Positions 49,401 through 52,400 of a DNA stretch of 64,000 nt are shown here, one piece after another. Position numbers: made by a program. Within the stretch, counting starts at the first letter, position 1. Every line of letters begins with the position of its first letter. The DNA comes from Escherichia coli (lineage in GTDB: Bacteria; Pseudomonadota; Gammaproteobacteria; Enterobacterales; Enterobacteriaceae). The stretch is from NCBI RefSeq assembly GCF_036507355.1, contig NZ_AP027877.1; one strand, 5' to 3'.

Positions 49401-52400
49401 GCGGGCGTGGAGTGACAGAAAAGCGTTACCTGCGCTGCTCTGGCAGCACCGCATGGATGAACCCATCGGTGTTTACACCGAAATGAAGGAAGACGATGTC
49501 GGGCTTTACGTCAGGGGACGGTTGCTTATTGATGATGATCCCCTCGCAAAACGCGCACATGCACACATGAAGGCCGGTTCGTTAACCGGCCTTTCTATTG
49601 GGTACGTCCTGAAAGACTGGGAATACGACCGGAGCAAAGAAGCCTTTCTGCTGAAAGAAATCGACCTCTGGGAAGTCAGCCTGGTGACGTTCCCGTCTAA
49701 CGACGAGGCGCGGATCAGCGACGTCAAGAACGCACTGGCCCGCGGGGAAATCCCCGAACAGAAAAAAATCGAAAGAGTCCTGCGTGATGTCGGACTCTCC
49801 CGTACCCAGGCCAAAGCATTCATGGCCGGGGGCTATGGCGCACTGTCCCTGCGCGACGCTGAGGATGTGGGCTCTGCACTGAATGCACTGAAAAATCTGA
49901 ACTTCTAATCAGGAGAAATACGATGGCGGTTGATATTAAAGATGTCGAACAGGTCGCGCAGGAGCTGCAGCAGAAGTTTGACGACTTCAAAGCAAAGAAC
50001 GACAAGCGCGTGGATGCGATTGAGCAGGAAAAAGGCAAGCTTGCCGGGCAGGTGGAAACCCTGAACGGGAAACTCAGCGAGCTGGAAAATCTCAAAAGCG
50101 ACCTTGAAAAAGAGCTGTTTGAGCTGAAACGTCCGGCAACGGCGTATGTCGAAAGCGGGGTGCTGCGCATTCAGCGTGATGTCACCACGTACAGGAAAAA
50201 TGCTTACGGGGTTGCGGATAACAGCTACCTCGACAGCGAGACGCTGCATACCAGTGCGTATGTACTGCGCAAACTGAAATCCGTCATTACCAGTAAGTAC
50301 GGGCGTCACAAGCTTGCCAGCGACGGTACCCGCTTTGGTCCCGGTCAGGCGATTGTCACCCCGGCGGTGATCAAAGGGGAACTGCTGGCAACCTACCGTC
50401 AGCTTGGGCGTGCGGGGATCGTGGAAAACTACGAACTGTTTAAGCAGTACCTGGTTGTGGAGCGTGATGCCAGCGATCCGAACCGCCTGAACACGCTGTT
50501 CCCGCCTGACTATGTTAACCAGTTGCGTGTCTTTGCCGTGGTTAACCAGTTCCGTCTTCAGTATTCAGAGGAGTCTGCATAATGGCCCGTATCGGGGGAA
50601 CCTGTTATTTCAAAATTGACGGTCAGCAGCTATCGCTGACCGGCGGCATTGAGGTGCCCATGAACAGGACGGTCAATGATGACATCATCGGCCTGGACGG
50701 TTCAGTGGACCGCAAAGAAACTCACCGTGCGCCTTATGTCAAAGGGACCTTCAAGGTGCCGAAGAATTTTCCGGTGAGCAAAATCACCTCGTCTGATGAG
50801 ATGACCATCACTGCCGAGCTGGCAAACGGTCAGGTCTATGTACTGTCGTCTGCCTGGCTGCACGGCGAAGCGAACCATAATGCCGAAGAAGGCACGGTCG
50901 ATCTTGAGTTCCACGGTGAAGAAGGGGATTACCAGTAATGAAAGAGCTTGAGTTAAAGAAACCGATTACCGCTCATGGCGAGACACTCTCCGTACTGGAG
51001 TTTGATGAGCCCACCGGGAAAGATGTCCGCGAGCTGGGATATCCCTACCAGATGAATCAGGATGAGTCCGTCAGACTTCTGGCGCATGTGGTATCGAAAT
51101 ACATCGTGCGGCTGCCCTGATGCGGGAGCTGGATCCGCGCACCACCACTGAACTGATAAACCGCTGGGAGCGTCTGTGCGGCCTGCCGGATGAATGTATT
51201 CCGGCGGGAACGCAGACCCTTCGCCAGCGTCAGCAACGGCTGGATGCGAAGGTTAATCTGGCGGGCGGCATCAATGAGGATTTTTACCTTGCACAGCTTG
51301 CTGCCCTGGGCAGACCAGATGCCAACATCACGCGATACGACAAAAGCACGTTCACCTGCTCATCGGTCTGTACTGACGCGGTGAATGCGCCGGAATGGCG
51401 GTATTACTGGCAGGTCAACATGCCAGCTGCCACCAACACCACCTGGATGACATGTGGCGATCCCTGTGATTCCGCACTGCGTATCTGGGGCGACACCGTT
51501 GTCGAGTGTGTGCTTAACAAACTCTGCCCGTCGCATACCTACGTAATTTTTAAATATCCGGAGTAATTCATGCATCGTATAGACACGAAAACCGCGCAGA
51601 AGGATAAGTTCGGCGCGGGTAAGAACGGTTTTACCCGTGGTAACCCCCAGACCGGCACGCCTGCCACCGATCTGGATGATGACTACTTTGACATGTTGCA
51701 GGAGGAGCTTTGCAGCGTGGTGGAGGCATCCGGTGCCAGCCTGGAGAAGGGGCGGCATGACCAGCTGCTTACAGCGCTTCGTGCGCTGCTGTTAAGCCGC
51801 AAGAATCCGTTTGGTGATATCAAATCGGATGGCTCGGTGAAAACGGCTCTCGAAAACCTTGGTTTGGGAGATGGCTCGGGGCGTTACAGCAAAACTGTCG
51901 TTTTTTCATCGTCGGGTTCATATACGTGGCCAGCTGACGTAAAACGAATTGACGTTATTCTGACTGCGGGGGGCGGCGGTGGCGGTGGATGTAACGCGGA
52001 GAACGCAAATCAGACATTTTCAGGGGCTGGCGGAGGAGCCGGAGGTACTGTTTTTGCCACTATTTATGCGACAGACAACGATGCCGGGCCAGGGACCTAT
52101 ACAGTGACAATTGGCAGCGGTGGTAGTGGTGCCAATGGGCCAGGGTCTGGAAATAATGGCGGTAATAGTTCGTTCATGACATTAACTGCGCTCGGCGGCC
52201 AGGGTGGGCAATGGGGCGGCGCTACAAATACCGCTGGCGGGCGCGGTGGCTCAGGCTCTGGCGGTTATAAAACTGAATAAGGCGGAGACGGTTCAGACGG
52301 ACAGGCGGGCCAGGCGCTATTAGTAGGCAATGGGGCATCGAGCTATTGGGGTGGCGGCGGCCGCGCTGGGCAACTGAGCGGTAATCCTGGAGTTTGCTCT

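Follow-up and report, generated by a model that had tools for sequence, protein, structure and literature searches.

The serotype-converting phages SfII, SfI, SfIV and SfV belong, with e14, to a prophage family that combines lambdoid regulation, an HK97-type head and a Mu-type contractile tail. The cryptic e14 prophage of strain K-12 retains ymfR, ymfQ and tail-fibre remnants of this SfV-like family, and CPS-53 (KpLE1), another cryptic prophage of K-12, occupies the argW site with an intS gene, as does the prophage described here. SfI, a relative of SfV and e14, has a contractile tail and packages its DNA by the cos mechanism; it integrates at a tRNA site other than argW, for which primers to the flanking proA and yaiC are given (PMC3636060). 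Genomes of serotype-converting myophages of Shigella and E. coli are described in two further papers (PMC3772137, PMC3851460). More generally, grounded prophages have lost excision and morphogenesis by deletion, insertion sequences and point mutation, keeping their cargo (PMC6379469).

We analysed a window of 64,000 nucleotides from the E. coli contig NZ_AP027877.1, and conclude, with a probability of about 0.93, that the region is the late (structural) arm of a defective, grounded prophage of the SfII/SfI/SfIV/SfV-e14 family inserted at argW. Two internal deletions, of 4,225 and 7,434 bp, stripped most of its head-completion, tail and baseplate genes. The process is ordinary prophage decay, the result being a grounded prophage of the SfII/SfV/e14/CPS-53 type, and the deletion alleles are private. 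The element descends from the SfII/SfV-type family, but is not a functional member of it.

Two deletions collapse the head and tail module

As a reference for mapping we used the apparently intact argW prophage of E. coli Yu5 (NZ_CP200247.1, ~1,516,100-1,558,700), which is 98.7-99.9% identical to the remnant; a second reference, also aligned, gave the same two junctions. Positions 38039-50138 of the window (12.1 kb) match Yu5 without gaps at 98.7% identity, positions 50135-51114, from the 3' end of the sheath gene through the tube and chaperone genes, match 4,225 bp further along at 99.9% identity, and positions 51102-51874 match after a further jump of 7,434 bp. A collapse of this module by internal deletions was the central claim of the preliminary description, which had proposed mapping the endpoints against intact related prophages; the alignments show it directly. 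The structural-gene DNA missing relative to Yu5 amounts to 11,659 bp.

Upstream of the first deletion, the packaging and early head block (45145-49908, plus strand) is 97-98% identical to SfII, SfI and SfIV. Its HNH, P27-family terS, terL, portal and S78 protease genes are all intact, as previously described, and so is ymfR (Table 1); the names ymfR, ymfQ, stfP and intS are those found in the annotations of relatives. Alignment to intact relatives indicated that capsid codons 73-401 are gone with the first deletion, as are the head-tail connector, head-closure and tail-terminator genes and DUF2635, together with sheath codons 1-351. Also lost are the chaperone C-terminus, the tape measure, the DNA-circularisation protein, the gpP-like, gp45, gp46 and J baseplate proteins and the N-terminus of YmfQ. 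The earlier view that tape measure and most baseplate genes are missing therefore stands, but that of a missing sheath gene has to be amended, since ca. 70% of it is deleted and the part for its C-terminus persists. Of the contractile-tail set only the tube is complete; the rest consists of sheath residues 352-498, about 59 chaperone codons, YmfQ residues 47-194 and a fibre gene with a nonsense codon.

Table 1. Features of the argW prophage remnant and its flanks in the window.
Feature	Position	Strand	Evidence and state
Host dsdA 3' remnant, with left deletion junction at ~35524/35525	35320-35525	-	NCBIfam D-serine ammonia-lyase, profile 373-441 of 444
IS3-family insertion sequence inside the remnant	36407-37636	-	orfA 37294-37578, orfB 36425-37237
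nin region, Q antiterminator, cargo (lipocalin, YbgA, HTH), lysis cassette (essD, rrrD, Rz-like)	38039-45144	+	all intact
HNH	45145-45495	+	intact
terS	45621-46115	+	intact
terL	46112-47845	+	intact
ymfR	47857-48039	+	intact
Portal	48039-49280	+	intact
S78 prohead protease	49258-49908	+	intact
Chimeric ORF, 219 aa	49923-50582	+	capsid residues 1-72 joined to tail sheath residues 352-498; BLASTP and Pfam
Junction 1	50135-50138	.	GGCA microhomology of the 4,225-bp deletion; capsid codon 72 to sheath codon 351/352; three-way alignment
Mu-type tail tube, 118 aa	50582-50938	+	PF10618, E 2.4e-33; intact
Tail assembly chaperone stub, 60 aa	50938-51120	+	PF10109, profile positions 2-45 of 79
Junction 2	51102-51114	.	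imperfect 10-13-nt microhomology CGTGCGG(C/A)TG of the 7,434-bp deletion; three-way alignment
Truncated YmfQ (Mu Gp48/DUF2313), 148 aa	51120-51566	+	PF10076, profile positions 40-149 of 150
Tail-fibre gene, glycine-rich C-terminus	51570-52502	+	nonsense CAG>TAG at 52278-52280
Tail-fibre assembly protein	52503-52907	+	PF02413, E 3.3e-32; intact; same length as in relatives
Acyltransferase	53196-54320	-	PF01757, E 9.3e-29; GC 0.34; intact; same gene at same position in relatives
IntS-type tyrosine integrase	54461-55654	-	PF00589, PF22022, PF13356; intact; intS in annotation of relatives
tRNA-Arg(CCT) argW, integration site	55780-55854	-	ARAGORN and Rfam

The 219-aa ORF is a chimera

All four ORFs reported downstream of the protease gene are present (Table 1), including the Mu-type tail tube, the 60-aa chaperone stub and the N-terminally short DUF2313 gene. 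The first of them had been described as having only a capsid-like coiled-coil N-terminus and standing in place of an expected capsid of ca. 380 aa. The N-terminus is indeed derived from capsid, with 70 of residues 1-72 identical in BLASTP to a capsid protein that is, however, 401 aa long. The remainder comes from the C-terminus of the tail sheath (147-148 residues): ORF residues 72-219 differ by one substitution from sheath residues 351-498, and PF17482 was detected on residues 98-210 (E 6.7e-22). The capsid-derived part corresponds to the segment that precedes the Phage_capsid domain (residues 115-398 of the reference), so that no complete PF05065 domain is present. The fusion keeps the native capsid start codon and is in frame, joining capsid codon 72 to sheath codon 352. 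The second deletion joins chaperone codon ~59 to ymfQ codon ~41 out of frame, and the stub thus comprises about 59 native codons of an 89-aa reference and then runs out of frame to a TGA. The YmfQ remnant (148 of 194 residues) starts at an internal ATG that overlaps this stop codon (TGATG). With 96-99.9% nucleotide identity to intact relatives, the ORFs of the module are fragments of known genes and did not arise by chance.

Capsid-forming satellites carry a packaging set that resembles the HNH-terS-terL-portal-protease block, and the intact block in the window would thus agree with a complete module of a compact element, either a cf-PICI-like satellite or a minimal phage, with the 219-aa product as a genuine short capsid. 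The preliminary description had named such a finding as its own refutation. This was checked, and the outcome favours the description, since the 219-aa product is not a complete known protein. The compact-element reading is refuted by the endpoint mapping, leaving it a practically nil probability: the product consists of 72 residues from before the capsid domain followed by sheath, each of the short ORFs derives by truncation from a full-length gene with 96-99.9% nucleotide identity, and the chimera has neither an exact copy in the public protein collection nor a full-length homologue that we could find.

Each of the two deletions brought far-apart parts of the late operon together at a short microhomology, and probably arose through illegitimate (microhomology-mediated) joining or template switching. 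Both junctions are absent from 5,426 complete E. coli genomes, and a 36-mer spanning junction 1 had no match in 100,044 species-representative genomes. The privacy of these junctions and of the chimeric protein would also be expected if contigs had been collapsed or mis-joined during assembly. We consider such an artefact highly unlikely, because k-mer or overlap assemblers are not misled by stretches as short as the 4 nt and ca. 10-13 nt shared at the junctions, because the same element shows three more lesions, independent of these, of the sort that real decay produces, and because comparable deletions occur in finished genomes and independent assemblies. Other E. coli strains contain different deletions in the same prophage family. 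Of 1,096 complete genomes with the sheath gene, 1,075 carry at least 80% of its length.

Loss of the early arm and retention of the integrase end

On the left side, the match of the host DNA to L003 stops at 35525 and the prophage match, to the gene downstream of ren in L006, begins at 35524. Host DNA therefore abuts a truncated early region, and the whole early arm and attR were lost together with part of host dsdA; the early arm of Yu5 has no counterpart in the window. The argW end is the only att end remaining, and a search of the window for a repeat of the argW region as attR retrieved none of at least 14 nt, with a few scattered 10-12-nt matches attributable to chance. The remnant also contains an IS3-family insertion sequence (transposase NCBIfam NF033516, E 1.5e-100), copies of which, 99.8-99.9% identical, occur dispersed in E. 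coli genomes. Between this insertion and the packaging block, the segment 38039-45144 is colinear with Yu5, and every mapped CDS has a start and a stop with no internal stop.

At the right end, the fibre genes and int flank a low-GC acyltransferase gene, probably cargo for O-antigen modification, and int adjoins the tRNA gene; this layout of the SfII/SfV type is shared by relatives. In all, genes essential for virion formation, the second att and the immunity, replication and excision functions, xis/torI among them, are lost, as in other defective prophages. The element should be incapable of assembling virions, and its excision and replication would no longer be possible.

Open frames in the remnant

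The preliminary description had noted that the surviving frames stay open. This holds for all 21 mapped surviving genes, which are intact, but not for the fibre gene, where a single C>T at 52278 creates Q237* (gap-free codon alignment with L002), nor for the stub, which runs out of frame into ymfQ. Differences from Yu5 comprise 100.5 synonymous and 43.5 non-synonymous changes (pN/pS 0.13); in the tube segment they fall to about 1 base in 980, with no amino-acid difference in the tube protein. This divergence looks like that ordinarily found between phages. The remnant is near-identical to intact relatives, leaving little time for decay, and the open frames would most simply reflect recent deletions, not selection.

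Selection would be involved if the fusion, the truncated YmfQ, the tube or the packaging genes had been domesticated to the benefit of the host, for example by poisoning superinfecting SfV-like phages. The fusion is in frame with the native capsid start, junction 2 makes a stop-start overlap before the truncated ymfQ, and the 21 neighbouring genes are intact with a low pN/pS; the first two features would permit the expression of novel proteins and, perhaps, some retained function. However, one in three fusions is expected to be in frame by chance, the low pN/pS reflects divergence between functional phages before the deletions and not constraint after them, and the allele is private, hence without sign of retention over time. 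Moreover, the element has lost the early region from which Q and late transcription would be driven, and the fibre gene already carries its nonsense mutation. Domestication is therefore very unlikely, and we favour recent decay.

Deletion endpoints in the sheath gene recur at few sites

In the SfV-like family, deletions that end in the sheath gene repeatedly do so at a small number of sites, identical to the nucleotide, of which CTGGTG^ACC is the commonest. We found dozens of independent sheath fusions in public E. coli assemblies, a sample biased to in-frame fusions, as they were retrieved as chimeric proteins, and to match lengths apparently at most ~1.75 times that of the query. In about 12 different fusions CTGGTG^ACC (codon 241|242) is the right endpoint, and in about 10 it is the left one (ca. 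22 uses). It falls inside a GGTGACC palindrome, of which the sheath gene has a cluster of five spanning 520 bp. The endpoint found in the window, GCA^ACGGCG (codon 351|352), was used four times with different partners, which in the three other independent fusions are terS (L008), YmfL (L007) and terS of a diverged relative (P0043).

This recurrence raises some suspicion that chance illegitimate joining does not fully explain junction 1, and that it could have been seeded by a sequence-specific break or nick in the sheath gene. Such a cause is compatible with a grounded prophage, as it concerns only how the deletion came about. It would account for the shared endpoint of the window and for the second site, CTGGTG^ACC, whose partner ends have only 1-4 nt of microhomology; there, microhomology abundance is about twice the gene average, which explains only a two-fold excess. 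Against it stand the sampling bias, the fact that no nuclease came to light and a local folding energy that is unremarkable at two of three sites, with a hairpin potential that stands out, weakly, only at the site of the window; comparison of the endpoint sequences likewise revealed no motif common to this site and the CTGGTG^ACC/GGTGACC sites. A seeded break is thus conceivable for junction 1, if rather unlikely.

For the family as a whole, we tentatively suggest, as a possibility well short of even odds, that the deletions grounding SfV-like prophages are not random and derive from a sequence-specific DNA-breaking or fork-stalling process that acts repeatedly. Candidates include cleavage by a restriction enzyme at GGTNACC-type sites, nicking at a specific site and the action of a topoisomerase at its site. 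GGTNACC, which we take to be the site of BstEII/Eco91I-type enzymes, coincides with many endpoints, although not with that of the window, and a literature search on a link with these enzymes found nothing relevant. If endpoints truly concentrate at specific sequences, prophage decay would be driven in part by a defined, identifiable DNA-damage process.

Other processes were considered and not adopted. One endpoint cluster has a perfect Chi 2-8 nt upstream of it, and the main cluster overlaps with a Chi-like octamer (7/8), but in many cases the side kept is not the one that RecBCD-Chi would protect. Likewise, Type III (EcoP15I/EcoPI) spacing, Pin/gix-like quasi-sites, the gyrase consensus, IS ends and pseudo-cos sites near packaging genes do not fit all sites.

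Comparison with described elements

Two other classes of element were rejected for the locus. A cf-PICI-type satellite does not accommodate a capsid cut to 72 codons, deleted connector and head-closure genes and fragments of tail genes, and an R-type tailocin is at odds with a sheath gene that is 70% deleted, the absence of tape measure and baseplate and the presence of head and packaging genes.

The value of the result itself is small, being a nucleotide-level record of how one SfII/SfV-like prophage was disabled. The correction of a capsid-like ORF to a capsid-sheath chimera should help annotation and prophage-completeness callers, which the intact packaging block might lead to score the element as a viable phage.

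The argW prophage of Yu5 shares integration site and gene order with the remnant and, unlike it, contains the full capsid-to-baseplate set, immunity, replication and recombination genes and torI. The two also differ in the C-terminus of the tail fibre and in the acyltransferase, and Yu5 has no match for positions 51875 to 54329. SfII, SfI and SfIV show 97.7-98.3% nucleotide identity to the window over the packaging and head genes, from terS through terL, portal and protease to the 5' end of capsid, and again from the 3' end of the sheath gene to tube and chaperone, their matches spanning extra DNA. Together with SfV, they resemble the remnant in gene order and in the O-antigen modification gene between the fibre genes and int, with the adjoining tRNA. 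However, these phages carry gtr genes as cargo instead of an acyltransferase, and they are complete, of 38-41 kb, and produce plaques and particles, whereas the copy in the window is without ~11.7 kb of structural genes, the early arm and attR.

CPS-53 and e14 differ from the remnant in their deletion endpoints and retained genes, and the remnant keeps its packaging block and lysis cassette intact. Its near-identity to functional relatives marks it as younger than both. With respect to grounded prophages generally there is no categorical difference, and the element in the window adds a further case, in which the deletion endpoints are placed at nucleotide resolution.

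Two deletions in the head and tail module

The preliminary description proposed that the prophage head and tail module at 49923-51566 had collapsed through internal deletions; this observation and its interpretation hold, with the corrections detailed here. The ORFs that it listed are all present and correctly placed. Megablast comparison of positions 45000-53200 with 5,426 complete E. coli genomes retrieved related prophages from around 2,000 of them. Strain Yu5 (NZ_CP200247.1), whose argW prophage appears intact, was the best reference for mapping. Alignment to Yu5 maps two deletions, of 4,225 and 7,434 bp (see Table), and strain 0-4, used as a second reference, gave identical breakpoints. 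Junction 1 (50135-50138) joins CGTCCGGCA to ACGGCGTAT, with GGCA present in both parents, and junction 2 (51102-51114) joins CGTGCGGCTG to CCCTGATG, the parents being CGTGCGGCTGGCG and CGTGCGGATGCCC. An assembly artefact is an unlikely source of these deletions, because the junction homologies are of only 4-13 nt and the same element contains three other independent lesions.

Table. Coordinates of alignment blocks, prophage features and sheath-gene sites (positions in the window unless a locus is named).
Feature	Position	Details
Yu5 alignment, block 1	38039-50138	98.7% identity; 12,100 bp, gap-free
Yu5 alignment, block 2	50135-51114	99.9% identity; resumes 4,225 bp further along
Yu5 alignment, block 3	51102-51874	96.2% identity; resumes another 7,434 bp along
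Prophage remnant	~35.5-55.8 kb	ends at tRNA-Arg(CCT)
tRNA-Arg(CCT)	55780-55854	adjoined by IntS-type integrase and low-GC acyltransferase
dsdA 3' remnant	35320-35525	profile positions 373-441 of 444; last ~69 codons
IS3-family element	~36407-37636	1.23 kb; inside remnant
Cargo-like genes (lipocalin, YbgA-family protein, HTH protein)	40245-43004	between Q antiterminator and lysis cassette
Tail-fibre gene	51570-52502	glycine-rich; C>T at 52278 gives TAG (52278-52280), Q237*
Acyltransferase-3 family gene	53196-54320	intact; GC 0.34; beside intS
Sheath endpoint in the window	50135-50142	GCA^ACGGCG, codon 351/352
CTGGTG^ACC site	L005 (Yu5 prophage region) 16763-16771	minus strand; sheath codons 240-242
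CTGGTG^ACC in relatives	L002 16884-16890; L009 8236-8250; L010 3715-3730	

In deletion 1, capsid codon 72 is fused in frame with sheath codon 351/352, a 1-in-3 event. The capsid-like N-terminus predicted for the 219-aa product is indeed capsid (residues 1-72, 70/72 identical), but the remainder is tail sheath (352-498, one substitution), which had not been foreseen; Pfam places the tail-sheath C-terminal domain (PF17482, E 6.7e-22) at residues 98-210. The capsid piece lies entirely upstream of the Phage_capsid domain (residues 115-398). Domestication of this fusion is possible but unsupported. It had also been considered that the 219-aa protein might be a complete known protein of an unusually compact phage; protein searches found no exact or full-length match to it, and endpoint mapping rules out a compact complete element.

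Deletion 2 joins chaperone codon ~59 to ymfQ codon ~41 out of frame. At 51116-51122 the TGA of the chaperone stub overlaps an internal ymfQ ATG (TGATG), yielding the 148-aa ORF, and this stop-start could permit coupled translation of the truncated YmfQ. Profile searches confirmed the identities proposed for the neighbouring products: the 118-aa ORF is a Mu-type tail tube (Pfam PF10618, E 2.4e-33), the 60-aa ORF matches a tail assembly chaperone over its first half (PF10109, positions 2-45 of 79), and the 148-aa ORF is an N-terminally short DUF2313 protein (PF10076, Mu Gp48/DUF2313, positions 40-149 of 150).

As read from the Yu5 annotation, the deletions removed the remainder of the capsid gene together with a small ORF, the head-tail connector and the head-closure protein; a 168-aa protein, the tail terminator and DUF2635; the C-terminus of the chaperone, the tape measure, a 225-aa protein and the DNA-circularisation protein; and the gpP-like baseplate protein, gp45, gp46, J and the YmfQ N-terminus. 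The tape measure and most baseplate genes are gone, as had been described, but the sheath gene, also reported missing, lost 70% and kept its C-terminus.

State of the surviving frames

Open frames were claimed throughout. The 21 genes mappable onto Yu5 all begin and end at intact start and stop codons, and none is interrupted by an internal stop, but codon-for-codon alignment with a relative (L002) revealed a nonsense mutation in the tail-fibre gene, so that the final 74 codons before the fibre-assembly gene go untranslated. The 21 genes differ from Yu5 by 100.5 synonymous and 43.5 non-synonymous changes (pN/pS 0.13), a pattern typical of divergence between two functional phages and silent on constraint after the deletions. 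The tube protein is identical to that of Yu5. With only about one difference per 980 bp around its gene, the time elapsed is too short for frame decay to be expected, and the tail-fibre gene already has its nonsense mutation.

Frequency of the deletion alleles

The deletion alleles in the window are private: they had no match among the 5,426 complete E. coli genomes, and the junction-1 36-mer was absent from 100,044 representative genomes. Prophages of this family in other E. coli strains have deletions of their own, such as a truncated tape measure in strain 0-4 and, in EC_Lstone01, a sheath-N::ymfQ junction in the bio-locus prophage and an argW remnant in which everything upstream of DUF2635 is absent. 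Of the 1,096 complete genomes with a sheath gene, 1,075 have at least 80% of it; therefore, sheath truncations are uncommon but unremarkable.

Recurrent endpoints in the sheath gene

A protein search with the chimera brought up numerous further X::sheath-C fusions in E. coli assemblies, and one with sheath residues 1-241 many sheath-N::Y fusions. We mapped all 216 retrieved proteins onto the sheath, a sample in which a fusion shows up as a chimera only if it is in frame and in which match length apparently stops at ~1.75 times the query, and their endpoints were strongly clustered. One site, CTGGTG^ACC (codon 241/242), was used around 22 times with different partners, independence from shared ancestry being judged solely from the differing partners. 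As a right endpoint it had ~12 left partners (capsid, terL, terS, portal, connector, YbcN, YmfL, a GntR-like protein, a membrane protein and three sheath-internal positions), and as a left endpoint ~10 right partners (gp46, gp45, circularisation protein twice, YmfQ twice, J and three sheath-internal positions); the junctions were verified on DNA in three relatives (L002, L009 and L010). Partner ends have just 1-4 nt in common, mainly TG or GTG, and microhomology is only about twice as abundant here as the gene average. The site sits in one of five GGTGACC palindromes grouped in 520 bp; of the other four, three likewise bear endpoints, one more endpoint lies 5 nt past the fifth, and a GGTAACC site in the tail-terminator gene has one too.

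The sheath endpoint in the window does not lie on a palindrome of this type. It is common to three other independent fusions, with terS (L008), with YmfL (L007) and in a diverged relative (P0043); the L008 and L007 junctions both read gagcca^acggcg. Deletion endpoints in this gene recur at nucleotide-precise sites, and their apparently non-random placement is the only feature that might repay further work. Chi proximity, hairpin potential and several nuclease ideas were considered as causes, and each accounts for some of the endpoints only.

The sheath gene contains a perfect Chi octamer (GCTGGTGG; L005 reverse-complement coordinate 32485, sheath codons ~324-327), which precedes a second cluster of endpoints (…ML^PAPKGKRF) by 2-8 nt. 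Directly upstream of this Chi, a sheath variant (P0126) representing 698 member sequences loses frame.

Chromosomal setting

The window is E. coli-lineage chromosome, with 97.5% identity at 9570-35525 to the ypdF-emrY region of one E. coli strain and 97.3% at 51102-60534 to the argW prophage remnant and yfdC-mlaA of the same strain. Its argW site is also that of CPS-53/KpLE1 in K-12. At the left end, host sequence breaks off inside dsdA (region 35213-35844), whose remnant abuts part of a gene that other lambdoid prophages carry downstream of ren. Missing are the remainder of dsdA, the host genes next to it, attR and the entire prophage early arm; the window has no equivalent of the ren, P, replication protein, regulators, recombination genes and torI of Yu5. 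A search of the rest of the window for repeats of the argW region found none of 14 nt or longer. Because only the last codons of dsdA remain, D-serine deaminase is presumably absent from the strain.

A 145-aa ORF next to the IS3-family element (37599-38036) had no NCBIfam match; a relative's annotation of the matching stretch includes a 'BstA C-terminal domain-containing protein', and the ORF may be a disrupted anti-phage gene.

Relationship to known phages

The element is an ordinary, recently grounded SfII/SfV-like prophage. Its closest named phages are vB_EcoM-689R6 and vB_EcoM-720R4, followed by SfII, SfI and SfIV at 97.7-98.3% identity; SfI, a lambdoid phage with a contractile tail and cos packaging, is related to SfV and e14 (PMC3636060). 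The three cargo-like genes, with lipocalin on the minus strand and a very AT-rich HTH gene (GC 0.32 at 42-43 kb), are all intact and near-identical to those of Yu5. The acyltransferase probably modifies O-antigen, the type of cargo that a host would keep, whereas relatives have gtrABC or a different acyltransferase in the same slot.
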